A stretch of DNA of 60,870 nucleotides from Candidatus Omnitrophota bacterium (GCA_041651035.1 JBAZKC010000001.1:1-60870); one strand, 5' to 3'. Positions 1-40,768 are shown, numbered from the stretch's first letter. Numbers and translations are program-made. Notes: a model not told the origin generated them from the sequence alone.

Positions 1-122
1 CATAAGTGAATTCTGTTTTTACCTTAACCAATTCAATTTTTTTGCATAACTTCTTAATCAATCTGCACCTATCAACGCCTCCGCCAAATCCGCCATGCTG
101 TGTCTATAAGGTAGACAACGGC

Positions 123-154
123 CATCCAAAGGTCTTGATAAAGACCTTTGGATG
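123..154. repeat. Perfect 14-bp inverted repeat (hairpin) with GATA loop
   Basis: CATCCAAAGGTCTT (123-136) pairs perfectly with AAGACCTTTGGATG (141-154). It lies in ORF-poor DNA at the left edge of the window. Confidence 0.8.
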
Positions 155-158
155 ACAT

Positions 159-227
159 GTCGAATTCTGGCCCAAAGATTTCGAGCTGTCTTCCAAGCGA
201 GAAATCGACGGCCGTTTAGAATTCGAC
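159..227. repeat. Extended imperfect hairpin of about 69 nt (22 bp in four helical segments)
   Basis: Pairings read directly: GTCGAATTCT (159-168) with AGAATTCGAC (218-227); GGCC (169-172) with GGCC (210-213); GATTTC (177-182) with GAAATC (201-206); GC (185-186) with GC (197-198). Confidence 0.7.
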
Positions 228-262
228 GTTTCCTTGCTATTCATAGCTATTCTCATACTTTG

Positions 263-329
263 CTTCCTGCCGCGAGAGATTTTCGAGCAAGATTTGAAAT
301 TCGGGGTAACCCTTCCTGCGCGAGATTTT
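263..329. repeat. Direct repeat pair CTTCCTGC(CG)CGAGA(GA)TTTT
   Basis: The sequence at 263-283 (cttcctgccgcgagagatttt) matches 312-329 (cttcctgcgcgagatttt) apart from two 2-nt indels. The region is GC-richer than its surroundings and has no credible ORF. Confidence 0.6.
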
Positions 330-439
330 GCCGCCGTTTTGAGGCCGGTGCAACTTTCTTAATCTTCATATTTTTACCTCTTTTAAATCTAAGATATCAC
401 GTACATTCATCTGCTAAGAAACTAAAACAGGACGCCCTG

Positions 440-1285
440 TTATTTCACACTCCACTGGAATGACTCAAAATCAAACGCAGACCGCTCAACTGGACAATAG
501 ATGTCTCTATCTTTTAAGACATCGGCGACTTTATTCTTCCTGCTATTTTTCATGCCAGGACAAACAACAACACGCCGAATAAAATCCTTTGTTAATTGAA
601 CGCGAATACCCTTATTAGGTTTTCGTCCGCGTAATAAACTTGAATTTCCCAACATGAAACTATCACAAATAACACGAAATTCTTTCTCAAATGATAATGC
701 AGAATGCTTAAGTGACAATCCTCCTAACGCAAAGCAGTGAGAAGGATTAGATATGTTTTGTCCATTTGGATCAGAAAACTCAAAAGTTGATTGTTCGACT
801 TCGCTAGGAGGGTTTTCCTTTGGATTTATATAGGTTACATTACGCGCCATAATAAATAATTTCCTGTTGTGAGCTTGCCACAATTTTTCAAACATAGCTT
901 TTAATTTATCAATATCAGTCTCTATGCATACACCGCAAGTATCTTGGGAATACAGTTTCCACATCGCCATTGATTCTTCTGTTGAATTATACCAACAACT
1001 CAAGAAAACATGTGTTAAAGCGTCATTAATTTTGCCTCTTCCCATGATCGGAGTTGGCTCAATAATATCAACATCAGTAATCGTTTCATTGCCCATTTCT
1101 ATTTGCTTACGATTGAAGACATTTAAATTTTGTGTAGCGATCTGTTCAGCAATCTGCCGCCAATGAAATATTGTCAATCCTTCCCATGGATCATTTTTGA
1201 GATAATAATTTGCTGGAGGAAGGAATAAACCTTTCCTACAAACATCAACAAACCGTTTAAATGTCATGTAACGAGAAATAATCAT
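440..1285 (-). CDS. DUF2971-like protein, function unknown (accessory gene)
   Basis: 281-aa ORF. The N-terminus ISRYMTFKRFVDVCRKGLFLPPANYYLKNDPWEG fits the DUF2971 pattern as I recall it. The gene is AT-richer than the housekeeping genes. A short stem-loop (427-440) plus a T-run overlaps the stop. Confidence 0.5.
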   Translation of the reverse strand: MIISRYMTFKRFVDVCRKGLFLPPANYYLKNDPWEGLTIFHWRQIAEQIATQNLNVFNRKQIEMGNETITDVDIIEPTPIMGRGKINDALTHVFLSCWYNSTEESMAMWKLYSQDTCGVCIETDIDKLKAMFEKLWQAHNRKLFIMARNVTYINPKENPPSEVEQSTFEFSDPNGQNISNPSHCFALGGLSLKHSALSFEKEFRVICDSFMLGNSSLLRGRKPNKGIRVQLTKDFIRRVVVCPGMKNSRKNKVADVLKDRDIYCPVERSAFDFESFQWSVK

Positions 1286-1387
1286 TGTTTCACCTTTTAG
1301 AATCTATTTTTATTATCACCAAAATCATCTCGCGTCACTTACACCAATGAACAACCGAAGGTTTTAGCAAATATTAATTTATTCACT

Positions 1388-2386
1388 CTAATTGTTCCTA
1401 TTTATTAGATTCACAACCAGCATTACTATAATATCGCGTTCACTGGGCTTGCTTTCAGCAGTCATTAACGTCAAGGCAACCAGGGCATTATCGGCAATGC
1501 GCTTTGAGCCATCTTCTTTATACAAGAGACTATTTTTCTCTAAAAACCATAGAAATATTGAAGCTGCAATCCGCTTGTTGCCGTCAACAAATGAGTGATT
1601 TTTGACAATAAAATAAAGAAGGTTAGCTGCCTTCTCTTCAACGCTTGGGTATAAATCTTTTCCGTCAAACGTCTGATAGATTGAAGATACCGAACTCTTA
1701 AACGATTTATCGCGCTCTGTACCGAAAAGATTTGAACTGCCGATTCTTTCTTTAAGCTTATTTACAGCTTCTATTGCGAGTTGGTAGCTTAAAACAAATT
1801 TCTCTTCTCTTGAAGTTTTACTTATCTTAAGCCGCTTATAGTCATAGTCATCTAAAAGCCCAAGAGCGTAGTTATAATCGTTGATAACCTCAAGCAGGCC
1901 CATAGCTTCTTTGTATTCAAGCTGTTTACGGTCTTTCATACTGCCGATAAGTTTTACTGCCCGTTGTAATGCCTGAAGTTTTCGAGCTTGTTCTTTTAAG
2001 CGCTTTTCATTTAAAGTGTACCCGTCAATTAGATGCCGCTTTAAGATATTGGTAGCCCAAATACGAAACTGGGTAGCTCGAATAGAATTAACCCTATAGC
2101 CAAGCGAAATTACCGCATCAAGGTTATAGAATTTTACCGGCTTATCTGAAAAAGCAATGTGCAAAAAATGCACATTGCTTTTTCCGTCCAATTCACCAGA
2201 ACGGAATATATTACCTAGGTGCTTAGTAATAACACTCCGCTCTGTTTTAAAAAGTTTTGCTATTTGCTCTTGTGACAGCCAAACAGTTTCCTGCTCCAAC
2301 TTAACCTCAAGCTGGATTTTTTTATCTTTGGTTCGATAAATGGCAATCTCGCCTTTTGACGGAATCTCAATAATTTTGTTTTTCAT
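1388..2386 (-). CDS. RhuM-family N-terminal domain fused to a Fic/Doc (death-on-curing type) domain
   Basis: 332 aa. The N-terminal half (WLSQEQIAKLF...YNLDAVISLGYRVNSIRATQFRIWAT) is typical of RhuM virulence-protein family members. The C-terminus carries HSFVDGNKR (1571-1597), matching the Doc-type motif HxFx(D/N)(A/G)NKR. Confidence 0.8.
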   Translation of the reverse strand: MKNKIIEIPSKGEIAIYRTKDKKIQLEVKLEQETVWLSQEQIAKLFKTERSVITKHLGNIFRSGELDGKSNVHFLHIAFSDKPVKFYNLDAVISLGYRVNSIRATQFRIWATNILKRHLIDGYTLNEKRLKEQARKLQALQRAVKLIGSMKDRKQLEYKEAMGLLEVINDYNYALGLLDDYDYKRLKISKTSREEKFVLSYQLAIEAVNKLKERIGSSNLFGTERDKSFKSSVSSIYQTFDGKDLYPSVEEKAANLLYFIVKNHSFVDGNKRIAASIFLWFLEKNSLLYKEDGSKRIADNALVALTLMTAESKPSERDIIVMLVVNLINRNN

Positions 2387-2399
2387 AATTTACTAATTT

Positions 2400-2558
2400 T
2401 TAGAAAATAGTATAAATAAATGGCGTCAGTGTTGAAGATTGCGTAAAAAACATAAGCGCGCCCAATAATAAAAATATGATAATGATAGGCGCAAGCCACC
2501 ATTTCTTCCTTGCTTTAAGAAAAAGCCATAATTCTTTAAAAATAGCCAATTTTGACAT
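2400..2558 (-). CDS. DUF5989-like small membrane protein (52 aa), absent from the supplied ORF track
   Basis: Hand translation gives MSKLAIFKELWLFLKARKKWWLAPIIIIFLLLGALMFFTQSSTLTPFIYTIF*. The ELW.FLK.RKKWWL.PII...PFIYT.F pattern and the position right after an SxtJ-like gene match the DUF5989 family as I recall it. Confidence 0.6.
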   Translation of the reverse strand: MSKLAIFKELWLFLKARKKWWLAPIIIIFLLLGALMFFTQSSTLTPFIYTIF

Positions 2559-2573
2559 CTTGGCTTCCTTTTG

Positions 2574-2975
2574 TTAAAATTGCCTCTCGTAATCAGCCGG
2601 TAGAAATTGCTTATTTTCTTTGGGCTTCCAATACGAGCCGCGGGAACGATCGAACTTTCTTTCTAAAAGATCCACCCTGAATAAACGCATGATCAAGCCA
2701 ATGGGTGAGAAAATAAAATAAAAAATAAAACATAATAACAGCCTCGTATTAAGCCAACTTAAAACAAAGGCCAGCTTCATCCATGGGATATAAAAATACT
2801 TTAGCAAGGCCGGGGCGCATAGCGTAAGCAAAAGAAAGAATAAGGAAACTACCCCTGTCAGGATCAGGGAGTGTTTATCCCTAAGAAAAAGAATCAACGT
2901 AATCCCGGCAAAACATAGCGCCATGATCAGGCCAAAGTTCCTTAAAATATTCTTATCTGTTTTTATTTTATCCAT
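2574..2975 (-). CDS. SxtJ-like small membrane protein
   Basis: 133 aa with multiple TM helices. It has LRNFGLI near the N-terminus, SPIGLIMRL...SYW and a C-terminal YERQF. It sits directly downstream of a carbamoyltransferase, as SxtJ-family genes usually do. Confidence 0.6.
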   Translation of the reverse strand: MDKIKTDKNILRNFGLIMALCFAGITLILFLRDKHSLILTGVVSLFFLLLTLCAPALLKYFYIPWMKLAFVLSWLNTRLLLCFIFYFIFSPIGLIMRLFRVDLLERKFDRSRGSYWKPKENKQFLPADYERQF

Positions 2976-2979
2976 TATC

Positions 2980-4797
2980 TTAGTCTAATTCAAAATGTTT
3001 TTTCCAACCTTCGTCTTTTTCAACGCTTTTCTGAAGCCGCTTATCCAAAAGGTAACTTCCCATGACTAAATAATCCATCTCTGTGCGCATAAAACAGGAA
3101 AATGCGTCTTCCGGGGTAGAGACCAAAGGCTCTCCCCGCACATTAAATGAGGTATTTATAATAACAGGGCAGCCCGTTTCTTTAAAGAACTCATTTATCG
3201 TATCATAATAGAGAGGTTGATCATCCCTCTTAACAGTCTGTACCCTGGCTGAATAATCAACATGAGTTACTGCTGGAATTAACGAACGCTCAACTTTAAG
3301 CTTATCTAATCCATTGGCTGCCTTAAGCGCGATATCCACATCCAGCCTCTTATCTTTTTTTATGGGAGCAGTAAAAAGCATATACGGGCTTTCTCTATCC
3401 AACTCAAACCATTGCGCAGCTTCTTCTTGAAGCACCGCAGGGGCAAAAGGGCGAAAGGACTCGCGATATTTGATCTTAAGATTCATCTTGGCTTGCATCT
3501 CTTTATTCCTCGCGTCAGCAATAATGCTCCTGGAACCTAAAGCGCGCGGCCCAAATTCCATTCTTCCCTGAAACCAGCCAATGATATTTCCTTCCTCAAT
3601 AAGCCTGGCAACAGATTTCGGCAGCTCTAACAAATTAAGTTTCTTAAATGGGATGTTTTTGCCTTTCAGGAAATCGCCAATCTCTTCATCATCGTAGGCG
3701 GGCCCTAAAAAAGAAGCCTGCGGAGAATCCGTGATGCCACCGGAGGACCGGTTATTCCCAAGATGTTTATGCCAAATCAATAACGCCGCGCCCAAAGCCC
3801 CGCCAGCGTCTCCGCTTGCCGGTTGAACCCATATATTCTCAAACGGCCCTTCGCGTAAAATACGGCCGTTGCTTACACAATTAAGAGCTACGCCTCCTGC
3901 CAGACAGAGATTTTTTTGTCCGGTAGTCTTATAGATATGCCTGGACATCTTCAACATAATATCTTCAGTAACTTTTTGGATAGAAGCGGCTAAATCCATC
4001 TCTTTCCGCGTAATCCTGGTCTCTGGTTTACGAGGCGCTCCGCCAAATAAACGGTCAAACTTACCATTGGTCATACGTAACCCATTGCAAAAACCAAAAA
4101 ATTCCATATTTATCCTGAAAGAACCGTCATCTTTAATATCCACTAAATTCTTAAGAATCAGATCTGCATAGCGCGGCTGGCCATAAGGAGCAAGCCCCAT
4201 CAATTTATATTCGCCTGAATTAACTTTAAATCCGGTGTAATAAGTAAACGCTGAATAAAGGAGTCCCAGTGAATGCGGAAATCTCAGATAATATCGCGGT
4301 TCTAAATTGTTACCTTTGCCTATACCAAAGGCTGCTGTTTCCCATTCGCCAACACCATCTATAGTAAGAAACGCCGCTTCCTTAAATGGCGAAGGATAAA
4401 AAGCGCTGGCGGCATGAGATTCATGATGGCCGCAAAAGAGGATTTTCCCCTGATACCCAAGCTGATCTTTAATAATTTCAGGGATCCATAATTTCTGCTT
4501 AAGCCATGAAGGTATGGCCTGGATAAATTGTTTTATCCCTGAAGGGGCATAGGTAAGCGCGGTTTCGAGAATGCGCTCAAACTTAATAAATGGCTTATCA
4601 TAGAAAACCACATAATCGAGGCCCTTGCTGCTGGTCTTGCCTTCTTTTAAACACCAATTGACAGCATGCAAAGGAAAACTAAGATCATGTTTTTTACGGC
4701 TAAAACTCTCCTCCTGCGCGGCCCCGATGATCTTACCATCGCGCAGCAGGCAAGCCGCGCTATCATGATAAAAACAGGAAATACCTAAAATATCCAC
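2980..4797 (-). CDS. Carbamoyltransferase (NodU/CmcH family)
   Basis: 605 aa. The N-terminus ILGISCFYHDSAACLLRDGKIIGAAQEESFSRKKHD and the overall length are characteristic of the family. Confidence 0.9.
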   Translation of the reverse strand: MDILGISCFYHDSAACLLRDGKIIGAAQEESFSRKKHDLSFPLHAVNWCLKEGKTSSKGLDYVVFYDKPFIKFERILETALTYAPSGIKQFIQAIPSWLKQKLWIPEIIKDQLGYQGKILFCGHHESHAASAFYPSPFKEAAFLTIDGVGEWETAAFGIGKGNNLEPRYYLRFPHSLGLLYSAFTYYTGFKVNSGEYKLMGLAPYGQPRYADLILKNLVDIKDDGSFRINMEFFGFCNGLRMTNGKFDRLFGGAPRKPETRITRKEMDLAASIQKVTEDIMLKMSRHIYKTTGQKNLCLAGGVALNCVSNGRILREGPFENIWVQPASGDAGGALGAALLIWHKHLGNNRSSGGITDSPQASFLGPAYDDEEIGDFLKGKNIPFKKLNLLELPKSVARLIEEGNIIGWFQGRMEFGPRALGSRSIIADARNKEMQAKMNLKIKYRESFRPFAPAVLQEEAAQWFELDRESPYMLFTAPIKKDKRLDVDIALKAANGLDKLKVERSLIPAVTHVDYSARVQTVKRDDQPLYYDTINEFFKETGCPVIINTSFNVRGEPLVSTPEDAFSCFMRTEMDYLVMGSYLLDKRLQKSVEKDEGWKKHFELD

Positions 4798-23951: not shown

Positions 23952-26147
23952 TCAATCCAAACTCAAAAGCTCCTGCTTTACTCTTTGGTAATCCGGAGTA
24001 TCTATCCGGGTATATATCTCTTGCGCCTGCCGGAGATACTCCCTGGCTTTGTTCTTTTGCCCTTTCCTCTTATATAGAGAACCTAGATTATTATAAGCAG
24101 CAGCTGATTCTAAAGGCGCGTCTATATCTTTACAAACTGAAAGGGCCTGGTAAAAATATTTCTCCGCTTCGGTAAAATTATCTATTTCTACATATAATTC
24201 ACCGATCATATTATAATCCGAGGCTATATTAGGCATATTACCCTGTTTTTGATCTATCTTTAACCCCTGAAAATAAAAATCCAGCGCTTTCTGGTATTCT
24301 TTCTGATAAGAATAGACCTCGCCGACATTAAAATAGTAATCGCTTAATTCACGGGCCAGCTTAAGCCTGTTGAATAACCTGAAACTCTTATCGTAGAATT
24401 CCTTAGCGGTAGCAAGATCATCTTTATTCAGGAACAAAAGCCCGAGATTAAAATAATCACATGCCAGATTATACCTGTGCTTGTATGAGTATTGCCTTTC
24501 CCGGTTAATTTCTGAACTCTTAGTAAGCAGCTCAAGGGCTTTATCATCTTCTCCCTTATCCATATACCAAACCGCCAGCTTCCTTAAGGCAATAGCCTCG
24601 TTTAACCTATCCTTATTCCCCTTGCTTAAAGCTATTGATTTATTATAGAACTCAAAGGCCTTGGCGTATTCTCCGTATAGATGATAGATCCAGCCAATGC
24701 CGATATAAGCAGAACTTAAATTCTTTTTATCACGCCTTTTCTCGCTGAAGAACGCGTAATCAAAATAATATTTCAGGGCATTATCTTTATCTCCTAACCT
24801 CTGATAGGTATCTGCCAGCAAAGGATAAATTGCCAGGAATGAAGGTTCATTCTTTATTATGCGGCCGGATTGCGAAATGACTCTTTGATTCTGGCCTCCC
24901 CGGAATGACCTCTGGGATTCCAGGAATAAACGATAGGTATTAGGGTTTATAGTAGGCAGCCAAATATACAGGCAGATACAGACAGATACAAACACTACTG
25001 CCGCAAAGAACCAGGCCAGCCGTTTCCTATGCAAAGAAATATTTATTCTCGGCTTATCGCTCTTCGGCTTTACTTTTGGCCGGAATAATATAAAATTGGG
25101 GTCTCCGTAAAGAAGATAACTTGCCCAATGCATAGGCATTATACCGTATTCACTAATTAACTTAAGGCGGCCCAATCTGATACTCTCGCCCATAGACTTG
25201 CCGGAAATCAACTGCGCGTAGAATTCTTTTGAAAAAGACAGGCTGACCGGGTCTTCTATCTTGCGTATCGCCCCGATATAATGACGGACACCGGAAAACA
25301 GGAATGCTGACGCCAGGCTGTAATTGTTCTCCTGGTAATCCGCTTCCATCGGTTTTGCGGTGTTTACAGCGGAATGACAGGCGTTAGAGAATATTAAGGC
25401 GGGTAAAGAAACGGCTGAACCCATGGCAAGGATATCCTGGATAGTAAACTTAGAGTCGCTTAGGACCCAGCCGCTATTATCGGGGTTATCCGCCTCATAT
25501 TCACAGTGCCCGGCAAAGTGCACGATATCGTAATCGCAGAGGTTTTTCTTTACATACATCTTATCGATATACGTGGATTTAAAATCGATATGCACATTAT
25601 TGCTTTTGCGGTCAAATTGATTTTTGATATTTACGCCTTCTAAGTAAGCGGATTTTAAATCATTGGTGGGATTGACCATTATCAGCATTTTAAGAACACC
25701 GGCGAAACTACGGTACCGGGGCCGGCTTACCGGCTCCCTGGTCCTGATCACCCTGCCTATATTAAAAGCAAGGCATAAGAAGCTCCTTCCATCATAGAGG
25801 AGTTCCCAGGGAATGTTAATTAACTCTTCATCCGTAGAAAGTATCAGGCTGGAGATTTGAGAGGATTTTAATTTTTCCTTAACTGACGGGGTAAGCAGGT
25901 GATCCCAGAGCAGCCGGCCGGATTTGATCAAACCCTTGATCAGTTCCTTGTCATAAGCGCTATTTTTACCTGCCTTATTTAATATAAAGGAAATTTCCTG
26001 GCATAATTTATCTATTTCCGCGGATGAAACAGCGCACTGGCTATAATGCCGTAATGTCGAAGCAAGTTCCAGACGCTCAAAAACACTCATTTTGAGCGTC
26101 TGTCCCTGCTTTAATATTTCTAAGACCAGGGTACCGGCTTCCTGCAT
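23952..26147 (-). CDS. CHAT (caspase-like protease) domain - single TM helix - TPR repeat protein
   Basis: 731 aa. The CHAT hallmarks are IVHFAGHCEY (His), LIFSNACHSA (Cys) and WASYLLYGDP. A basic stretch KVKPKSDKPRINISLHRKR precedes the TM helix LAWFFAAVVFVSVCICLYIWL. About 320 aa of TPR-like repeats follow (repeated A..Y/F...L patterns). Confidence 0.8.
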   Translation of the reverse strand: MQEAGTLVLEILKQGQTLKMSVFERLELASTLRHYSQCAVSSAEIDKLCQEISFILNKAGKNSAYDKELIKGLIKSGRLLWDHLLTPSVKEKLKSSQISSLILSTDEELINIPWELLYDGRSFLCLAFNIGRVIRTREPVSRPRYRSFAGVLKMLIMVNPTNDLKSAYLEGVNIKNQFDRKSNNVHIDFKSTYIDKMYVKKNLCDYDIVHFAGHCEYEADNPDNSGWVLSDSKFTIQDILAMGSAVSLPALIFSNACHSAVNTAKPMEADYQENNYSLASAFLFSGVRHYIGAIRKIEDPVSLSFSKEFYAQLISGKSMGESIRLGRLKLISEYGIMPMHWASYLLYGDPNFILFRPKVKPKSDKPRINISLHRKRLAWFFAAVVFVSVCICLYIWLPTINPNTYRLFLESQRSFRGGQNQRVISQSGRIIKNEPSFLAIYPLLADTYQRLGDKDNALKYYFDYAFFSEKRRDKKNLSSAYIGIGWIYHLYGEYAKAFEFYNKSIALSKGNKDRLNEAIALRKLAVWYMDKGEDDKALELLTKSSEINRERQYSYKHRYNLACDYFNLGLLFLNKDDLATAKEFYDKSFRLFNRLKLARELSDYYFNVGEVYSYQKEYQKALDFYFQGLKIDQKQGNMPNIASDYNMIGELYVEIDNFTEAEKYFYQALSVCKDIDAPLESAAAYNNLGSLYKRKGQKNKAREYLRQAQEIYTRIDTPDYQRVKQELLSLD

Positions 26148-27659: not shown

Positions 27660-29765
27660 TTATTTGAAGAAACTGTTAGAGATGATAAAGGAGGCAAAAA
27701 CAATAGAGACCATGGACATTAGTTTGATCAAGATATTCAAGGATGGCCCCGAAGTATCTTTGAAGGGATCTCCTACGGTATCTCCGGTAACTGTAGCCTT
27801 ATGAGCCAGTGAACCTTTGCCGCCATGATGGCCTTCCTCTATATACTTCTTGGCGTTATCCCAGGCTCCACCGGAATTAGCCATCATGACTGCCAGAACA
27901 AATCCTGTAACCGTTGCCCCGCACAATAAACCCGCTTCCGCTTCAATACCCACAAGAATTCCCACGGCAATAGGAGCGGCAATCGCCAAAAGGGACGGAA
28001 AGATCATTTCTTTCTGGGCTGCCGCGGTAGCAATACTTACACATCTGGCGTAATCCGGCTTGGCCTTGCCTTCCATCAAACCGGTTATTTCTTTAAACTG
28101 CCTCCTAACCTCAACTACGATCTTACCAGCCGCTCTTCCCACCGCGCGCATGGTCAACGAGCAGAAAAAGAACGGAAGCATACCGCCGATAAATAACCCC
28201 ACCAAAACATTGGGATTCATCAGGCTTAAAACCATATCCTTACCGGAAATTATCAGCACCTGATCTTTATACGCGGCGATCAAAGCCAGCGCGGTCAAAG
28301 CAGCTGAACCGATAGCAAAACCTTTACCGGTCGCGGCTGTAGTATTTCCTAGAGCATCTAAAGCATCGGTTCTTTTTCTTACTTCCGCAGGTAAATGGGA
28401 CATTTCCGCATTCCCTCCGGCATTATCCGCTACCGGCCCGTAAGCGTCAGTAGCCAGAGTAATACCTAAAGTAGAAAGCATACCTACGGCAGAAATCGCT
28501 ATCCCGTAAAGCCCGGCATTAAAATTCTGGGCTCCGCCGGCAAGAAAATAGCTGGCCAGGATAGCTATACAAACAATGATAACCGGCAAACCGGTAGACA
28601 TCATCCCTACAGCCATACCTTCAATAATCACTGTGGCCGGCCCGGTAATTGAAGCATCGGCAATCCCACGGGTAGGCTTAAAACCGCTGGAAGTATAGTA
28701 TTCGGTAATCAAACCGATCAATACGCCTGCCAGTAACCCGGAAAGCACTGCCCAGTAAACTCCCAGATGTTCAACGCCTAAAGTATATTTAATCAAAAAG
28801 AATGAAATTATCGCAACCAAGATAGAACTGGTAAAGACACCTTTACGTAAAGCAAGAAGCAATACTTTCTGAGAAGCCTGTTCCCCGCTTTTTACGAAAA
28901 ATGTCCCGATGATAGAAGCGACCACGCCTACCGCGGCCATAACTAAGGGAACGGTTACGCCCGCAACCCCTAAACCAGCGGCCACGCCTAAAGCTGAAGT
29001 TGCTACGATTGAACCGACATAAGACTCATACAGGTCAGCTCCCATACCTGCTACGTCACCGACATTATCACCGACGTTGTCCGCGATGACTGCAGGATTT
29101 CTCGGATCATCCTCAGGAATTCCCGCTTCTACCTTACCGACTAAATCTGCCCCAACATCAGCAGCTTTGGTAAAGATCCCGCCGCCGACCCTGGCAAAAA
29201 GAGCCATGGAGCTCGCGCCCATACCAAAGCAAAGCATAGTAGAAGTAATCGCCGCGATCTTATCAATTCCGTGAGGAGTAGCATGCCCGGCGTAATACCA
29301 ATTCAGGAAATAATACCAAATACTTAAATCTAATAGGCCAAGCCCGACGACAGTCAAACCCATGACCGCGCCGCTGGAAAATGCTACCCGAAGGCCGGAA
29401 TTAAGGCTTTTCATGGCAGCTGCCGCGGTGCGATTAGAAGATTGGGTAGCTATGCTCATCCCGATAAAACCGGAAAGGCCGGAGAAAAAACCGCCGGTCA
29501 GGAAAGCAAAAGGCACAAACATAACCAGATAGCCTTTAAAAGCCAGGACTAAAAGTATAAAAAACATTACGATGAAAAATAAGGCTACTCCCGTATACTG
29601 CCTTTTCAGGTAAGCCCGCGCGCCGATCCTCACCGCTTCGGCGATCTCTTTCATCTTATCCGAGCCTTCGTCCATTTTCATGATGCTCATAGCCAGGTAG
29701 AAAGCAAAACCGAGAGCAAGGATTGAACCGGCCGGAGCCAACAATAACAAATCAAAACCTGCCAT
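27660..29765 (-). CDS. hppA: Membrane-bound proton/sodium-translocating pyrophosphatase
   Basis: 701 aa polytopic protein with [41 protein letters not shown] and [12 protein letters not shown]. Confidence 0.9.
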
Positions 29766-31835: not shown

Positions 31836-32198
31836 CTATTTATAAACCTTAAAACCGGGCAACCGGTCGTTTTTTACCCTCTGGAAACGCTCATCGTCAA
31901 CGGTCATCAGCGCCTTTATATAACGCCAGGCGATAAGTATGTCTGCCTTTACTTTTTCTTTTACCTGTTTATTGGGCGGGATCAATCCGCCTTGATCGTC
32001 CCACCAGATCCCGAGTTCATAAGCGGGATTCTCTATCCATATCCCCACGTCATCTATTCCGGTTACAACAGCCCATGCTTCATCTTTATAAATTTGAAAA
32101 AGAGGGAGATCCGCTTTTATTTCTTCGGAGAATTTAAAGAGCACTAATTTACCTTTCAGCCCTTCTGCCTGCATATCGCCCTCCCGCATAGCCTCCAT
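31836..32198 (-). CDS. Hypothetical protein
   Basis: 120-aa ORF in the co-directional gene string. No family was recognised and the start is uncertain. Confidence 0.4.
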   Translation of the reverse strand: MEAMREGDMQAEGLKGKLVLFKFSEEIKADLPLFQIYKDEAWAVVTGIDDVGIWIENPAYELGIWWDDQGGLIPPNKQVKEKVKADILIAWRYIKALMTVDDERFQRVKNDRLPGFKVYK

Positions 32199-32267: not shown

Positions 32268-32636
32268 TTATTCTTTATGCTGATTAACGCCTTTTAAAGA
32301 TTCAATTACCTTTACAGCTTCTTTCTTGGTAAGCTTACTAATGTCGGGCTTATGGTAATATTTGTGTATAAAATTGTTAAGATGCCCCTCTTCCCAGCCG
32401 GCCTCTCTAGCAAGATATTCGATATATAACTTCTGCCTGATGGTCAAGCCAAAGGGATTAACCTGATAATATTTGCTGCGTACAAAGAAGTTCATCAGCT
32501 TCCTGAACTTTTCATCATCCAGCTCCTTGGCGCTGCTTACTCCTGCTATCCGCTGAAGGGTATCTCTGTATTCAGCATCACTTAAGTTTAATTCTTTTTT
32601 GACAATATGTATAACAGCTAATTTCTTTTTGTCCAT
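32268..32636 (-). CDS. Phage Mu gp16/GemA-like protein (DUF1018)
   Basis: 122 aa. KLAVIHIVKKELNLSDAEYRDTLQRIAGVSSAKELDDEKFRKLMNFF and LTKKEAVKVIESLK fit the DUF1018 pattern from memory. Confidence 0.6.
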   Translation of the reverse strand: MDKKKLAVIHIVKKELNLSDAEYRDTLQRIAGVSSAKELDDEKFRKLMNFFVRSKYYQVNPFGLTIRQKLYIEYLAREAGWEEGHLNNFIHKYYHKPDISKLTKKEAVKVIESLKGVNQHKE

Positions 32637-32659: not shown

Positions 32660-32746
32660 CACCTTATAAGAGTTCTCCTACAAGGCAATTATAAATACTA
32701 TATATTACTATATCAAGTATTTTCCCGCCTTTATTTATTGCTTAAG

Positions 32747-34243
32747 ATGCCATTTAATGGTAAAGTTATTATAAGCAACACTATAATAAAGGAGATTAAA
32801 ATTAAGTATAATCACGTTTTATTCCTCAATCCTTATATCGAAAGCAGCGCCACAAGCACAATGATGCTTTTCCCTCCCACAGGCCTTGAATATGTGGCAA
32901 CGAGTGCTAAGGGCCTGGTCAATAAGATCACTCTCTTGGATCTGCGCTACGAAAAAGACCTATCCGACATAAATAAGCTTCTGGATTTTATATCCGGACA
33001 GGTCGATATTATCTGTGTGGGTATCGGCTGGGACCGGCAAATCGAAGAAATCTGCCAGCTTCTCAACCGCATGCCGGCTCACATCCCTCTGGTTGTAGGG
33101 GGCTATACAGCTACGGAAAAAGTAAATGAACTCTTTAAGGCATGCCCTGCCATAAATATCATAGCCAGAGGCGAAGGCGAAGAAACAATGAAAGAGATAC
33201 TAAAGGGCCTGCCGCTTAAAGATATCCGCGGTATCTCTTATAGGCAAGACGGACAAATAATACATAATCCCAACCGGCCCCTTCCCGATGTAGACAGCCT
33301 CGCTGCGCCTGACCGTTCCTTAAGGCGTAATGAATACTCACTTGCTGTAAACGGCGTAAGCCTGGCGGGCATAACCTTTGATTCAGTATTGAGCGCGCGG
33401 GGCTGCCCCTTTAACTGTAAATTCTGCACGTTCAGTTTAAACCCGTTAGGGCAAAAAAGAGAGTATGCCGCCCGCAGCGTAAACTCTGTAGTTGATGAGA
33501 TCCAGGGTTTAAAAGCGGGAGTGATACTCTTCAGCGACGACAACCTGTTCGTTGACCCCAAGAGGGCGGAAGAAATCTGTGATTTACTGATCAAACGAAA
33601 GATAAAAAAACGCTTCATCGCGCAAGCCCGGCTGGATATCGCCAAGTATCCGGTACTGCTGGAGAAAATGGTTAAGGTGGAATTTAAGGCGCTATTGATC
33701 GGGATCGAATCGCCCCATGACTGGATACTGACACAGCTTAGCAAAGGATTTAATCAAGAGACCATACGAAAATCGTTTGAGGTCCTTAAGAAATATCCTA
33801 TCTTCTATAACGGTTATTTTATTTACGGCAATATAGGGGAAACTGAAGAAGAGATGTTGTATATCGGGCAATTCGCCAAGGAAATAGGAGTTGATTCCAT
33901 CGCCTGCAATAAATTAAGGATCGAGAAGTTCTCGCCCCTAAGGGAGTTAGCGCTGAATTCCCCGGGTTATCATGTTACCGACAGAGGAGAACTATATTCG
34001 GACACCTACAGCCATGCCGCCTTGAAAAAAATAGGCAGAAGAATAAAATTCTCTTTTTATACCCCTTCACGATTTATGAAAATACTCTGGAAGAATATTT
34101 TCATAACAAAGTTCTTCACTTTTAAAGAAATGCTTCTTGTCCTAATCGCCTCCCCGCGCATCCTCGCAAACGTTATTATCAGAGAAAACCGCAGAGGCAG
34201 GCTCAAAGACTCTCTAAAACGCACCTTTATTAAGAATACCTAA
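32747..34243 (+). CDS. B12-binding-domain radical SAM protein
   Basis: It has an N-terminal cobalamin-binding-like Rossmann region and the radical SAM motif ARGCPFNCKFC. The track start at 32738 is TTG, and the first ATG is at 32747. This is the only substantial plus-strand gene. Confidence 0.85.
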   Translation: MPFNGKVIISNTIIKEIKIKYNHVLFLNPYIESSATSTMMLFPPTGLEYVATSAKGLVNKITLLDLRYEKDLSDINKLLDFISGQVDIICVGIGWDRQIEEICQLLNRMPAHIPLVVGGYTATEKVNELFKACPAINIIARGEGEETMKEILKGLPLKDIRGISYRQDGQIIHNPNRPLPDVDSLAAPDRSLRRNEYSLAVNGVSLAGITFDSVLSARGCPFNCKFCTFSLNPLGQKREYAARSVNSVVDEIQGLKAGVILFSDDNLFVDPKRAEEICDLLIKRKIKKRFIAQARLDIAKYPVLLEKMVKVEFKALLIGIESPHDWILTQLSKGFNQETIRKSFEVLKKYPIFYNGYFIYGNIGETEEEMLYIGQFAKEIGVDSIACNKLRIEKFSPLRELALNSPGYHVTDRGELYSDTYSHAALKKIGRRIKFSFYTPSRFMKILWKNIFITKFFTFKEMLLVLIASPRILANVIIRENRRGRLKDSLKRTFIKNT

Positions 34244-35809: not shown

Positions 35810-35837
35810 ATTATACCATCTTATATGGATTTGTCAA
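35810..35837 (-). promoter_or_regulatory. Consensus sigma-70 promoter (TTGACA-16 nt-TATAAT)
   Basis: On the minus strand TTGACA lies at 35837-35832 and TATAAT at 35815-35810. Both hexamers are identical to the consensus. Confidence 0.7.
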
Positions 35838-35854
35838 TAAGTTTAACAAAGACA

Positions 35855-35889
35855 GGGGACGGTTCTGTCCTTAGGACAGAACCGTCCCC
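35855..35889 (-). terminator. 16-bp stem-loop immediately after phoU; same family as 23908-23940
   Basis: GGGGACGGTTCTGTCC (35855-35870) pairs with GGACAGAACCGTCCCC (35874-35889) around a TTA loop. TGTCTTTGTT follows on the minus strand. Confidence 0.6.
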
Positions 35890-35895
35890 CAGATC

Positions 35896-36564
35896 TTAAC
35901 TTAGCTCTTCAGGATGGTGTTTTACTACCTTGCCTCCGACCATATAAATGACGTCTTCTGCGATATTGGTAGTATGATCACAGATACGCTCAAGATGACG
36001 GGCGATCAATAATAACAGCACAGCGCGCGGCGCGGAACCTGGGTCTTTTGCCATGTAATCATTGATCAATTCTTCCTGGACCATATTGCGCAATTTATCG
36101 GCCTGAGGATCAGAAAGAACCACCTTTTTGGCAAGCTCCACGTCTTTTTCTACAAACGCGTTTATTGCATCGCGAACCATATCCTGCGCGACAATAGACA
36201 ACTTGGGAATATCTATCAAAGGCTTAAGTACCGGCTTATCTATCAACTCCAGGACGCGCTGCGATATATCTACCGCCAGATCCGCAATACGCTCAAGTTC
36301 GGCGTTTATCTTCATGCCGGTAGCGATAAACCTTAAATCCCCCGCCATAGGTTGATGCCTGGCGATCAAATCAATGCATTTTTCATCAATTTCTAATTCC
36401 AGCTTATCAACTCGGTCGTCGTTATTAATAACTTCTTCAGCCTGGAGTTTATTCCGGGTTTTTAACGCCTCAATAGACTTAAATATCGCCTCCTGGGCCA
36501 TAACTGCCATCTTAAGGATATCCTTATGCAAGCCTTTCAGTTCTTCGTCAAAATGCCTTTCCAT
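35896..36564 (-). CDS. phoU: Phosphate signalling complex protein PhoU
   Basis: 222 aa with two PhoU repeats (DxxxD-type E/D clusters; ARHLERICDHTTNIAEDVIY). Confidence 0.9.
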   Translation of the reverse strand: MERHFDEELKGLHKDILKMAVMAQEAIFKSIEALKTRNKLQAEEVINNDDRVDKLELEIDEKCIDLIARHQPMAGDLRFIATGMKINAELERIADLAVDISQRVLELIDKPVLKPLIDIPKLSIVAQDMVRDAINAFVEKDVELAKKVVLSDPQADKLRNMVQEELINDYMAKDPGSAPRAVLLLLIARHLERICDHTTNIAEDVIYMVGGKVVKHHPEELS

Positions 36565-36599: not shown

Positions 36600-37355
36600 T
36601 TATCCATACCTTCCGGTAATATAATCTTCCGTCCGCTTATCACCTGGAGCGGTAAATATTTCCTGCGTTCCTCCGAATTCTATTAATTCTCCCAAAAGCA
36701 TGAAACCCGTGTCATCCGAAACACGCGCCGCCTGCTGCATATTATGAGTGACTATTATTATAGTATAATTATTCTTAAGCTCACGCATCAATTCTTCAAT
36801 CCTGGCGGTAGCCTGCGGGTCTAACGCAGAGCACGGTTCATCCATCAATAATATATCCGGCTTAACCGCGATAAGCCTGGCGATGCATAATCTCTGCCTC
36901 TGCTCTAAAGATAACCTCAAAGCAGGGCTATGTAGTTTATTCTTTAACTCATCCCATAAAAGAACGCTTTTCAGGCTTTTCTCAACTATCCCGTCTAATT
37001 TATTCCGGGCTCTCCCGTTGGAATGGATCTTTTCTCCGAAAATGATATTCTCGTAGATAGACAACGGGAACGGGTTAGGCCGCTGGAATACCATGCCTAC
37101 GTTCCTGCGCAAGGATACCAGGTCTGTACGGGGATCAAGAATATTGGCTTTACCAATCAAAACTTCGCCTTTTGTGCGCACACCCTCAATCAGATCGTTC
37201 ATACGGTTAAAAACCCGCAGCATGGTTGATTTACCGCATCCCGAAGGCCCGATTATAGCGGTAATCCTATTAGCGCTAAAAGATGAATTTATGCCTTTTA
37301 AAGCGTGAAAATCACTATACCAAAGATCCAATCCTTTCGTTATTATCTTTGACAT
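36600..37355 (-). CDS. pstB: Phosphate ABC transporter ATPase PstB, copy 1 (degenerate signature motif LSLEQ)
   Basis: 251 aa with the PstB-specific C-terminus [10 protein letters not shown]. Walker A (GPSGCGKST), the Q-loop (VFQRPNPFP), Walker B (LLMDEP) and the H-loop (VTHNMQQA) are canonical. The signature is LSLEQ (36900-36914). Confidence 0.9.
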
Positions 37356-38101
37356 TATCCGAACTTCCCCCTGATATAATCATCTGTGCGGCTGTCATCG
37401 GGAGCCGTAAAGATCTTATCTGTCTTATCCAGCTCAATGAGTTCCCCGCCCAAGAAGAAAGCCGTCCTGTCACCGACCCTGGCGGCCTGCTTTACGTTAT
37501 TAGTAACCAGGACTATAGTATATTTTTGTTTAAGCTTGATCATAGCGTCTTCTATTTTGGCAGTAGAGATAGGATCAAGGCCCGAACAGGGCTCATCAAA
37601 TAAGATCACTTCCGGCTCAACCGCCAGCGTCCTGGCTATGCATAAACGCTGCTGCTGGCCTCCGGATAATTTAAAAGCAGACGAGCTTAACCGGTCTTTT
37701 ACCTCTTCCCAAAGATAGGCCTCTCTTAAGACGCTTTCCACTCTCTCTTTTAATAATTTCGTATTTCTTGCTCCGTGCATCCTTATTCCGTAAGCCACAT
37801 TATCAAATATAGATAACGGCAAAGGAAGGGGCAGCGCGAATACCATACCCACCATTTTCCGTAACAGCTCCACATCTATTTCTTTAATATTTTTCTTATC
37901 AAGCTTAACCTCCCCGCCCATCCTGAAATTAGGCATAAGATCATTTAAGCGGTTAAGCATCCTTAAGAAAGTCGTTTTGCCGCTGTTTGACGGCCCGATA
38001 ACGCTTAATATCTCATTGGACTGGATATCCATGCTCACGTTTTTTAACGCCTGTATTAAACCAAACCAGATATTAAGATTTTTTATGCCGAATATTACCA
38101 T
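37355..38101 (-). CDS. pstB: Phosphate ABC transporter ATPase PstB, copy 2 (degenerate Q-loop and H-loop)
   Basis: 248 aa with C-terminus [10 protein letters not shown]. The signature [13 protein letters not shown] is canonical. The Q-loop Gln is replaced by Ala (37835-37837), the H-loop His by Asn (37499-37501), and Walker A reads GPSNSGKTT. Confidence 0.85.
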
Positions 38102-38946
38102 TTCTTTCTCTTCCTGAATTTATAACGTATGATTATCGCGACTAAATTCATGACTAAGACGAGCGTTAACAATACCAAGGCGGTCCCATACCTTACCTTC
38201 TCATCCACATTAGGCACCTGCGTTGAAATAACGTAAAGATGGTACGGCAGGGCCATTGCCTGATCAAGCGCGGATTTCGGAAGCTGAGGAAGATAAAACG
38301 CCGCTACCGTAAACAAAATCGGGGCCGTCTCTCCCGCCGCGCGGCCCAGGCCTAAAATAGTCCCGGTTAATATCCCGGGGATAGCGTTTGGTAAAACAAT
38401 ATGCCTTATGGTCTGCCATTTGCTGGCACCCAAGGATAAACTTACCTCGCGGAATGAATGCGGGACGCTTTCCAGCGCCTCGCGCGAAGCGGTAATGATC
38501 AACGGCAAAATCATAATCCCCAGTGTAAGCGAACCAGAAATAATGGACGCTCCCAGCTTAAAAAACACAACAAACAACGCTAACCCAAAGAGCCCGTAAA
38601 CTACTGAGGAGACGCCCGCCAGATTCACAATCGCTAATTTTATAATACGGTTGAGCGCGTTGTCCCTGGAATACTCGCTTAAATATACAGCTGCCAGCAG
38701 CCCTATCGGCAAGGCAAAAACGATCGCGCCTGTTACAAGATACAAAGTCCCTACGATTGCCGGGAAAATCCCTCCGCTGCGCATCCCCTGCCGCGGTATA
38801 TCGGAGAGAAACTGCCAGTTGATCGCAGGCAGCCCTTTCTGGATAATAATAACAACGATTAATCCTACAGGGACTACTATTAAAAGCGTCGCCAGGAATA
38901 AAAAGAAAAAAGCGATATTCTGCGTGCGGTAAGGATTCCTCATCAT
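38095..38946 (-). CDS. pstA: Phosphate ABC transporter permease PstA
   Basis: 283 aa polytopic protein with the EAA-type loop (SLGASKWQTIRHIVLPNAIPGI). It is the second permease in pstSCAB order. Confidence 0.9.
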   Translation of the reverse strand: MMRNPYRTQNIAFFFLFLATLLIVVPVGLIVVIIIQKGLPAINWQFLSDIPRQGMRSGGIFPAIVGTLYLVTGAIVFALPIGLLAAVYLSEYSRDNALNRIIKLAIVNLAGVSSVVYGLFGLALFVVFFKLGASIISGSLTLGIMILPLIITASREALESVPHSFREVSLSLGASKWQTIRHIVLPNAIPGILTGTILGLGRAAGETAPILFTVAAFYLPQLPKSALDQAMALPYHLYVISTQVPNVDEKVRYGTALVLLTLVLVMNLVAIIIRYKFRKRKKW

Positions 38947-39806
38947 TGCCTTTTATGCAGGAACAGATCCGCGGTTACATTGATCGCGAAACTCATGATA
39001 AACAAGACTACGCCGATAGCAAATAATGCGAAATAATGCTCACTTCCTACCACTGCTTCACCCATTTCAGCGGCGATGGTAGCAGTTAAGGTCCTGACCG
39101 GCGCCAGGATACTCTGCGGCATTGCTGCGGCGTTACCGGTGATCATCATTACCGCCATGGTCTCTCCGATTACCCTGCCGATCCCGAGCATAACCGCCGC
39201 AAGTATACCGCTGGAAGCCGCCGGAAGCATTACGCGCCATATCGTCTGCCAATGCGTTGCCCCTAAAGCGAAGGCCCCTTCTTTGTAATTCTTAGGCACT
39301 GAATAAAGCGCGTCTTCTGCGATTGAGACTATTGTCGGCATAGCCATAAACGCCAGCATTATTGAACCGGATAAAGCAGTTAACCCCGTCGGCAAATGAA
39401 AAATACTTTTTACTAAGGGCACTAGGGTCACCATTCCGATAAACCCCAAGACAACGCTCGGGATTGCTGCCAATAATTCTATCCCCGCCTTAAGGACTTC
39501 CTTGACTTTCAAGGGAGCTATTTCGGCAATGTAAATCGCGCAACCTACGCCTATAGGAATAGAAATAATTGCCGCCCCCGCGGTAACCAAGAGCGACCCA
39601 AGTATCAAGGGGAGTATCCCCAATTGCGGCGGTTCTGAAATTGGATACCAGCTTTTCCCAAAAAGAAACTTAAAGGGGCTTACGGTTTTAAATACCGCAA
39701 GCCCCTCCTTAAGCAGAAATAAGAAAATAAGCGCGACGAATAATATTGAAGCTAGGCCGCAGATAAGTATAAGTTTCTCAATAATAAACTCTTTGAATTT
39801 ACGCAT
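38943..39806 (-). CDS. pstC: Phosphate ABC transporter permease PstC
   Basis: 287 aa with ALGATHWQTIWRVMLPAASSGI. It is the first permease after pstS. Confidence 0.9.
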   Translation of the reverse strand: MRKFKEFIIEKLILICGLASILFVALIFLFLLKEGLAVFKTVSPFKFLFGKSWYPISEPPQLGILPLILGSLLVTAGAAIISIPIGVGCAIYIAEIAPLKVKEVLKAGIELLAAIPSVVLGFIGMVTLVPLVKSIFHLPTGLTALSGSIMLAFMAMPTIVSIAEDALYSVPKNYKEGAFALGATHWQTIWRVMLPAASSGILAAVMLGIGRVIGETMAVMMITGNAAAMPQSILAPVRTLTATIAAEMGEAVVGSEHYFALFAIGVVLFIMSFAINVTADLFLHKRQ

Positions 39807-39846: not shown

Positions 39847-40698
39847 TCATTTTACCGGAACAAAATCGGTTGCCAAAACCACATCCTGGCCTTCCTTGGA
39901 AAGCGTAAAATCTGCGAATTTACTTATTAACCCTTGCGGCTGCCCGTTTGTATAAAGGAACAGTGGACGGGATATAGGATACTTGCCGCTTCTTACATTT
40001 TCAATAAGGGGCGCGATATATTCTGAATTCTTGTCTTTGGCTACCAGAATAGCTTTTTGCCTGGCGCAGACATAACCCATCCCATAATAACCGATAGCCG
40101 CCGTATTATTAGCTACTTCATCGGCAATTGCCTGGGAAGATGAAAGCATCAAGGCCCCGGCAGCAAACTCTTCTTTTGAATCAGGGTCATTCTTTCTTAA
40201 CACGTGCTCTTTAAAATAAACATGTGTGCCTGAATTGACTTCCCGGGATAGTATGACAATCTTTTCATCCTTGCCTCCTACCTCTTCCCAGTTAGAGATC
40301 CTGCCGGTGAAAATCCCCGCTAACTGCTCAATGGTAAGCTTGCTTACAGGATTACGCGGACTAACCACAACCGCCAGCCCATCCAATCCCACTTTTATTT
40401 CATTCGGATTTACGCCTTTCTGTTTAGCCAGGGCAATTTCTCTTTCTTTAATGTTCCTTGAACTCATGGCAATATCGCAGGTTCCGCTTATAAGGCTGGA
40501 GAACCCGGTGCCCGAACCTCCGCCTGTAACTGCCACAAAACTACCAGGGTTATCCTGCATATATTTTTCAGCCCAGGCCTGGCCTAAATTAACCATGGTA
40601 TCTGAGCCTTTGATCTGGATGGAATTCTTATCTTTGGCGGCAAACGCAGACGCCGTAAATATAAACGCGGCTAATATGAATAACCAATTCCTACGCAT
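39847..40698 (-). CDS. pstS: Phosphate-binding protein PstS
   Basis: 283 aa with a signal peptide and GSDTMVNL...GGGSGTG, typical of the PstS/PBP family. Confidence 0.9.
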   Translation of the reverse strand: MRRNWLFILAAFIFTASAFAAKDKNSIQIKGSDTMVNLGQAWAEKYMQDNPGSFVAVTGGGSGTGFSSLISGTCDIAMSSRNIKEREIALAKQKGVNPNEIKVGLDGLAVVVSPRNPVSKLTIEQLAGIFTGRISNWEEVGGKDEKIVILSREVNSGTHVYFKEHVLRKNDPDSKEEFAAGALMLSSSQAIADEVANNTAAIGYYGMGYVCARQKAILVAKDKNSEYIAPLIENVRSGKYPISRPLFLYTNGQPQGLISKFADFTLSKEGQDVVLATDFVPVK

Positions 40699-40768
40699 GA
40701 TTCCTCCTTTTAGGATTACTTATTTTAACAGATAATTTACCGGAAGGCAACGCTATTTGGATGAATAT

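Follow-up and report, generated by a model that had tools for sequence, protein, structure and literature searches.

The window analysed in this study, a 60,870-nt stretch of DNA from Candidatus Omnitrophota bacterium (GCA_041651035.1, JBAZKC010000001.1:1-60870), contains on its minus strand a phosphate import operon with the gene order pstS-pstC-pstA-pstB-pstB-phoU. The gene for the ATPase subunit, pstB, is present as a tandem pair, and no further pstB was found within the window. According to the operon order, we call the two genes and their products upstream and downstream. The two open reading frames (ORFs) are adjacent and overlap by 1 nt (TAATG), and the coordinates show overlaps of 4 nt between pstC and pstA and of 7 nt between pstA and the upstream pstB. 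We found that neither PstB has the full set of catalytic motifs: the upstream protein has no Q-loop Gln and no H-loop His, and the downstream protein has neither of the two Gly residues of the signature. In the present study, we examined how widely this complementary pattern is conserved and what it may mean for the two ATP sites of the transporter.

A preliminary description of the locus had assigned both ORFs to PstB (the upstream one as copy 2 and the downstream one as copy 1), and this assignment was supported. Both matched the NCBIfam model TIGR00972 (curated cutoff, 343.2 bits). The downstream protein scored above the cutoff (362.5 bits); the upstream protein was 0.9 bit under it (342.3 bits), with PstB by far the best-matching family, and aligned end to end with Escherichia coli PstB (9k3x, E = 8.5e-80). 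Between them, the two proteins share 50% identity, and the identity to E. coli PstB is 51% for the upstream and 57% for the downstream protein. When an AlphaFold2 (AF2) monomer model of the upstream protein (predicted local distance difference test, pLDDT, of 70, which is moderate) was compared with known structures, the best superpositions were E. coli PstB chains (TM 0.83-0.88, with 0.87 to 9k3x_C). This predicted model confirms the PstB fold only.

The motifs of the downstream versus the upstream protein read GPSGCGKST versus GPSNSGKTT in Walker A, MVFQRP versus MVFALP in the Q-loop, LSLEQ versus LSGGQ in the signature, LLMDEP versus ILFDEP in Walker B, SALD versus SGLD in the D-loop, and VTHN versus VTNN in the H-loop. 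The positions previously given for LSLEQ, the Ala and Asn replacements, and GPSNSGKTT translate exactly (Table 1), and alignment with the solved E. coli PstB (structures 9k3x and 9k3s) placed the substitutions at the true motif positions. Those of the upstream protein correspond to E. coli G46, Q98, and H210, and those of the downstream protein to G156/G157, with Glu151 (36903-36905) in place of the second signature Gly (G157). In a reference set of 44 canonical PstB sequences, Q98, G156, G157, and H210 are 100% conserved; thus, the substitutions in the window are at invariant catalytic positions and do not represent chance variation. Judged from their sequences, both proteins are PstB homologues and not canonical PstBs.

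Table 1. Positions of the pst operon features and of the PstB motifs in the window
Feature	Position	Strand	Basis
Promoter-like site 5' of pstS, TTGCCT-17-TAAAAT with TG	40722..40750	-	consensus scan only, 9/12 matches; weak evidence
pstS, periplasmic phosphate-binding protein, first gene of the operon	39847..40698	-	TIGR02136, 260 bits (cutoff 206.6)
pstC, permease	38943..39806	-	TIGR02138, 299.8 bits
pstA, permease	38095..38946	-	TIGR00974, 294.2 bits
Upstream pstB, 248 aa	37355..38101	-	TIGR00972, 342.3 bits
Upstream Walker A GPSNSGKTT, fourth residue Asn for Gly; Lys42 and Thr43 kept	37970..37996	-	translation
Upstream Q-loop Gln (E. coli Q98) replaced by Ala89	37835..37837	-	translation, alignment
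Upstream signature LSGGQ, intact	37655..37669	-	translation
Upstream Walker B ILFDEP, catalytic Glu170 retained	37589..37606	-	translation
Upstream H-loop region N201-N-V-K204, Asn for His (E. coli H210) and Lys for Gln (E. coli Q213); Asn201 codon 37499-37501	37490..37501	-	translation
Downstream pstB, 251 aa	36600..37355	-	TIGR00972, 362.5 bits
Downstream degenerate signature LSLEQ	36900..36914	-	translation
Downstream H-loop His204, intact	36744..36746	-	translation
phoU, last gene of the operon	35896..36564	-	TIGR02135, 201.1 bits (cutoff 130.25)
Terminator-like hairpin, 18-bp stem with 11 GC pairs, beginning 5 nt past the phoU stop	35853..35891	-	consensus scan

To follow the substitutions in relatives, we aligned 120 homologues of the upstream type (78-85% identical) and 120 of the downstream type; all counts are based on these alignments. 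Nearly all the close homologues are labelled Candidatus Omnitrophota. In the upstream type, N201 and the LSGGQ signature were found in 120/120 sequences and A89 and N39 in 118/120 each; K42, T43, D169, and E170 were each present in 120/120. In the downstream type, L150 and E151 were found in 120/120, as were Q91, H204, the Walker A motif, and D172/E173. A regular-expression count had placed Lys or Arg at the H-loop His position in a quarter of the downstream orthologues; this was an artefact of the pattern matching an N-terminal IITKN, and the alignment gave His in all 120.

A scan of one genome per GTDB species yielded at least 431 loci with a relative, of which we examined the best 80 (Omnitrophota and Phycisphaerae). 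We aligned 81 upstream-type and 78 downstream-type sequences from these loci, the window included. N201, A89, and LSGGQ were present in 81/81 and N39 in 79/81 of the former, and L150 and E151 in 78/78 of the latter, in which H204 was found in 77 sequences, the remaining one ending at a contig edge. Tandem pairs with the same residues, always in the order upstream then downstream, were present in 77 of the best 80 loci; the other three were cut by contig ends. The two genes overlapped by 1 nt in 45 of the 77 pairs and were spaced by 10 nt or less in 61. Within the downstream type, pairs of sequences were on average 77.7% identical, against 75.5% within the upstream type; both types are equally conserved and under similar purifying selection, and neither is decaying.

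The pst gene order is kept in the related loci, and phoU lies 3' of the PstB pair in most of them. In eight related loci, the identity to the proteins of the window was 86-94% for PstC and 83-90% for PstA, above that of either PstB. Besides Omnitrophota, the best 80 loci include repeated, independent genomes of Phycisphaerae and Sedimentisphaerales (Planctomycetota). Several others, with pairs 72-79% identical, bear the labels Elusimicrobia, Krumholzibacteriia, Proteobacteria, or 'uncultured Planctomycetales'; wrong labelling or misbinning of Omnitrophota, or genuine transfer, may account for this. In five related genomes (L012, L032, L040, L043, and L075; about 1-3300 of each locus), a canonical pstC-pstA operon with a single pstB (signature LSGGQ, Q-loop Gln, and H-loop His intact) is located directly upstream of the asymmetric operon, and phoU comes next after this canonical operon in four of the five, L043 being the exception.

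We also looked for the pair in other phyla. A profile search of 1.84 billion representatives did not isolate an asymmetric subfamily, as clustering at 50% merges the Omnitrophota proteins into clusters represented by canonical PstBs. It did give divergent upstream-type proteins with VTNN, a change of the Q-loop Gln to Ala, Ser, or Val, and the canonical Walker A glycine, and divergent downstream-type proteins with LSAEQ or LTEEQ. A search with one divergent member (P0331) gave 120 proteins, the query included, among them proteins of Sorangium sp. So ce260, Polyangiaceae, and Gemmatimonadaceae. The Q-loop Gln to Ala and H-loop His to Asn changes occurred together in 118/120, with Ala at the Q-loop position in about 99% of this set. 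In this clade outside Omnitrophota, position 4 of Walker A was G (89), R (25), or A (3).

In the seven loci sampled elsewhere (L081-L087), including those of a cultured Sorangium (Myxococcota) and a Gemmatimonadaceae metagenome-assembled genome, the complementary PstB pair was present in 7/7, the upstream subunit having both Q->A and H->N. The order was pstS-pstC-pstA followed by the upstream-type and then the downstream pstB. The next gene was phoU in three of them, and the pairs in L082, L083, L084, and L087 had no adjacent phoU. The downstream signatures in these loci were LTSEQ, LSAEQ, LPLEQ, or LSGEQ; with such variation across phyla, it is the Glu that stays constant. PstC and PstA of Sorangium sp. 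So ce260 (CP150320.1, L081 4220-6004) are apparently fused into one 594-aa permease 5' of the asymmetric PstB pair.

Comparison with the 44 canonical PstBs showed that the class-defining changes of the upstream type are confined to Walker A (C47S and S50T), the Q-loop (Q98A and F103L), and the H-loop (I207L, H210N, M212V/T, and Q213K), and that a basic residue (K or R) three positions past the H-loop is class-defining for this type. In the downstream type, they are chiefly at G156 and G157 of the signature, and outside the motifs they are A137V and the penultimate F/Y256. The family-wide core, as given by these data, consists in one subunit of Q->A and H->N and, three residues past the H-loop, of Q->K/R, and in the other of a change of the second signature Gly to Glu. 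The lesions listed in the preliminary description thus held for the family at the Q-loop, H-loop, and signature; the Walker A Gly to Asn change, also listed there, is specific to the Omnitrophota/Phycisphaerae clade and does not extend to the whole family. The complementary degeneration, which had been described for a single locus, recurs in Myxococcota, Gemmatimonadota, and other loci and represents a multi-phylum subfamily, broader than had been proposed.

In a neighbour-joining tree, each subunit type formed one clade, also when the motif columns were masked, with weak bootstrap values for the exact clades (31 and 57 of 100). With single clades of modest bootstrap support, a single ancient origin of the asymmetric pair is likely, although not established. 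Some PstB-like proteins change the first signature Gly only (LSLGQ in P0266 and P0387, LSIGQ in P0272 and P0307, LSVGQ in P0354, and FSLGQ in P0365) and do not group with the LSxEQ proteins in the tree; they may point to other, independent Pst ATPases of an asymmetric or atypical kind.

In the head-to-tail dimer of nucleotide-binding domains (NBDs), each ATP site is composed of the Walker A/B motifs and the A-, Q-, and H-loops from one NBD together with its partner's signature (PMC7756269). The PstB dimer interface of E. coli PstSCAB contains two jointly bound ATPs, and the two PstBs dock onto different permeases (PMC12976172); thus, the permease scaffold is already asymmetric. By analogy with these dimers, all the substitutions would fall in one composite site and leave the other site fully consensus, and this would be the case in a mixed dimer only. 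Homodimers would carry two defective sites each, namely two LSLEQ sites in the downstream homodimer and two sites without Gln and His in the upstream one. Together with the strict co-inheritance and translational coupling of the two genes, this points to PstB as an obligate heterodimer in which one nucleotide site is catalytic and the other non-catalytic or slow, a reading to which we assign a probability of about 0.7.

The importer would then be composed of PstS, PstC, PstA, and two distinct NBD gene products, which would be made in equal amounts through translational coupling and form the obligate heterodimer. The consensus site, consisting of the downstream Walker A/B, Gln91, and His204 and the upstream LSGGQ, would contain all catalytic residues and would hydrolyse the ATP that drives alternating access. 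The degenerate site would be formed by the P-loop side of the upstream protein and the downstream LSLEQ. Its nucleotide-binding residues (A-loop Phe13, Lys42, Thr43, Asp169, and Glu170) are kept, and all are invariant. It would be without the gamma-phosphate-sensing Gln and the H-loop His, and a Glu would be placed where the backbone of the signature Gly normally contacts the gamma-phosphate; most likely, it binds nucleotide and hydrolyses it slowly or not at all. With slow or no hydrolysis at this site, the pump would spend about 1 ATP per cycle.

Earlier work on other transporters bears on this scheme. One active site is enough in the histidine importer HisP2MQJ (PMC3971661). In an electrophysiological study of CFTR, G551E and G551D, not G551S or G551K, stopped ATP-driven NBD closure, and the authors ascribed the effect to repulsion with the gamma-phosphate (PMC4178940). 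The Gly to Glu change in the downstream signature is, by this analogy, the natural equivalent of CFTR G551E. We infer heterodimer formation, the loss of hydrolysis, and the stoichiometry, and all our functional statements are predictions.

The fixed acidic residue (the signature Glu) and the fixed basic residue (Lys/Arg past the H-loop) fall in one composite site, and a salt bridge between them across the interface could form. A more far-reaching version of the scheme is that of an ancient, multi-phylum Pst family in which one ATP site has been permanently turned into a non-catalytic latch, the Glu-Lys/Arg pair perhaps replacing the gamma-phosphate bridge. One ATP would be used per phosphate, and the spare site would perhaps be a sensor of energy or phosphate status feeding PhoU. 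We regard this version as doubtful; if it is true, a built-in degenerate site would here be seen for the first time in a natural type I importer whose NBD subunits are separate.

Several observations weigh against the heterodimer with one non-catalytic or slow site. The upstream protein invariably keeps its catalytic Walker B Glu and its Walker A Lys, as a dead site usually would not, and some residual hydrolysis may persist. In addition, H->N or H->Q at the H-loop of MRP1 NBD2 left transport wild-type-like (PMC7756269), so that the degenerate site may be slow, not dead. The canonical operon beside the asymmetric one could mean that the role of the asymmetric system is specialised and not housekeeping. 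The invariance of Glu170, Lys42, and Thr43 and the transport retained by the MRP1 mutants would also fit a degenerate site that is remodelled yet catalytic, in which Asn201 and Glu170 support hydrolysis with altered kinetics, two ATPs are used, and the heterodimer only tunes the rate or cooperativity. However, three independent gamma-phosphate contacts (the Q-loop Gln, the H-loop His, and the signature Gly, changed to Glu) are altered together, CFTR G551E blocks ATP-driven closure (PMC4178940), and the variability of Walker A position 4 (G/R/A/N) in the clade suggests a relaxed catalytic constraint; we consider such a remodelled but catalytic site unlikely.

It seems rather improbable that the upstream PstB serves chiefly in regulation or sensing, with a non-catalytic site that would read ATP/ADP or another phosphorylated ligand and signal the transporter state to PhoU and the Pho regulon, while the downstream PstB powers transport. 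The position of phoU 3' of the pair in most loci is in line with such a role, E. coli PhoU is reported, in a reference cited in PMC12976172, to interact with PstB and PhoR, and the neighbouring canonical operon in some genomes suggests a division of labour; on the other hand, four of the loci from other phyla have no phoU adjacent to the pair, and sensing is compatible with the obligate heterodimer and does not exclude it. Alternative, condition-dependent homodimers of the two PstBs can be considered by comparison with the genetics of Enterococcus faecalis PstB1/PstB2, in which the tandem genes are non-equivalent and excess PstB2 can replace PstB1 (PMC12096839). The E. faecalis and Listeria pairs are both canonical in their motifs, whereas either homodimer of the present proteins would carry the two defective sites described above, and the genes are strictly co-inherited and translationally coupled; this possibility is very unlikely. 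As for strain-specific decay, which the preliminary description had named as an objection to its own proposal, or a sequencing error in a single metagenome-assembled genome, the probability is practically nil. The relatives do not retain the consensus motifs, the lesions are lineage-conserved, identical changes occur in hundreds of independent assemblies and in several phyla, and both genes are under comparable purifying selection.

With regard to the surroundings of the operon, the promoter-like site is located within the 70-nt gap between purF and pstS, and a T-run accompanies the strong hairpin 3' of phoU. Another phosphate-economy gene, that of a membrane H+-translocating pyrophosphatase (PF03030, 904 bits; 27660-29765, minus strand), is located some 6 kb away from the operon. 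About 290 nt 5' of a DEAD-box helicase gene (35522-34245) there is a perfect match to the extended sigma-70 consensus (TTGACA-16-TATAAT with an upstream TG; 35810-35837, minus strand), which points to a long 5' leader. Nearly all genes of this region are on the minus strand; the one sizeable exception encodes a B12-binding radical SAM protein with a TTG start (32738-34243, plus strand). A small protein matching phage Mu GemA (PF06252, E = 1.5e-11; 32268-32636, minus strand) and an adjoining 120-aa ORF without a Pfam match (31836-32198, minus strand) are isolated among housekeeping genes. On the other side of the operon, a long series of glutamine-dependent nitrogen and nucleotide genes (40769-60837, minus strand) includes purF, purL, a purQ-like gene, a fragment of the carbamoyl-phosphate synthase large chain and its small chain, CTP synthase, the large and small subunits of glutamate synthase, and type III glutamine synthetase. 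The window also contains a gene for a 731-aa CHAT-domain (caspase-like) protein with C-terminal TPR repeats (23952-26147, minus strand).

Degenerate ATP sites have been studied mostly in exporters and channels, such as TAP, CFTR, MRP1, Pdr5, and TM287/288, and the number of ATPs needed per cycle by binding-protein-dependent importers is still debated. The pair described here would provide a type I importer, natural and conserved, in which one ATP site is consensus and the other is not. Its NBDs are separate subunits, each of which can be mutated on its own; the solved structure of its canonical relative, E. coli PstSCAB, allows comparison, and at least one cultured organism (Sorangium) has the system. 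The ATP stoichiometry per cycle, the role of a non-catalytic site in an importer, and the reason why a signature Glu resembling that of CFTR G551E was fixed thus become testable questions. Our results also concern annotation, as all these proteins are now named PstB, although every second one probably does not act as an ATPase on its own.

We found no description of a degenerate-site PstB pair in open-access papers and preprints, although absence there is not proof. As far as we found, the asymmetric PstB pair is an apparently undescribed variant of the known consensus/degenerate design, and not a new kind of system. The closest solved system, E. coli PstSCAB (9k3x, 9k3y, and 9k3s; PMC12976172), has the same fold and family, the partners pstSCA and phoU, and the C-terminal tail (T)(E/D)DYI.G(R/K)(Y/F)G. 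It differs in having two identical PstBs and two consensus ATP sites, whereas the paralogues of the window are complementary at Q98, H210, and Q213 and at G156/G157.

Tandem pstB genes as such are known elsewhere, in E. faecalis, Listeria, and Bacillus subtilis, the last of which the preliminary description had already noted, and they also occur in cyanobacteria. In the tandem PstB1/PstB2 of Firmicutes, pstA and phoU likewise flank two neighbouring pstB genes, whose products are presumed to form a heterodimer, but both copies are canonical in Walker A, the Q-loop, the signature (LSGGQ or MSGGQ), and the H-loop, and neither contributes a degenerate site. Both tandem PstBs are canonical in E. 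faecalis (PMC12096839), and so are both copies of the pair of Listeria monocytogenes (L088), in which we inspected the motifs. A tblastn search against plasmids gave 149 matching records, all below 60% identity, of which the Listeria pair was the only one inspected at the motif level. B. subtilis PstBA/PstBB have been modelled as a heterodimer, with no mention of degeneracy (PMC11466899); the same modelling study noted degenerate sites solely for the fused NBDs of RbsA and NupO. As in the system of the window, one of the two ATP sites of these importers is predicted to be non-functional. Unlike in that system, their NBDs are fused in one polypeptide, they belong to another importer class (sugar/nucleoside), and the residues lost are the Walker A Lys and/or those of Walker B.

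Reviews place consensus/degenerate NBD pairs mainly in exporters (PMC3971661, PMC7756269). The system of the window shares with such pairs two non-identical NBDs, complementary lesions, and a predicted consensus second composite site; replacement of the Walker B Glu, a typical, not obligatory, feature, is absent. In the exporters and channels with one degenerate site (TM287/288, TAP1/2, CFTR, MRP1, and Pdr5; PMC7756269), this Glu is usually replaced, whereas the present system keeps it and loses the Q-loop Gln instead, and, as a type I importer whose NBDs are separate polypeptides, it is neither an exporter nor a channel. The degenerate signature of Pdr5, LNVEQ, has a Glu at the same position as LSLEQ in the window (PMC7756269). 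Symmetrising Pdr5 in a comparable way abolished its function. In CFTR G551D/G551E (PMC4178940, PMC2151620), the second Gly of LSGGQ is likewise changed to an acidic residue facing the gamma-phosphate. However, the CFTR changes cause loss of function in the catalytic site, whereas the Glu of the downstream PstB is fixed, conserved, and confined to a site that is already non-consensus.

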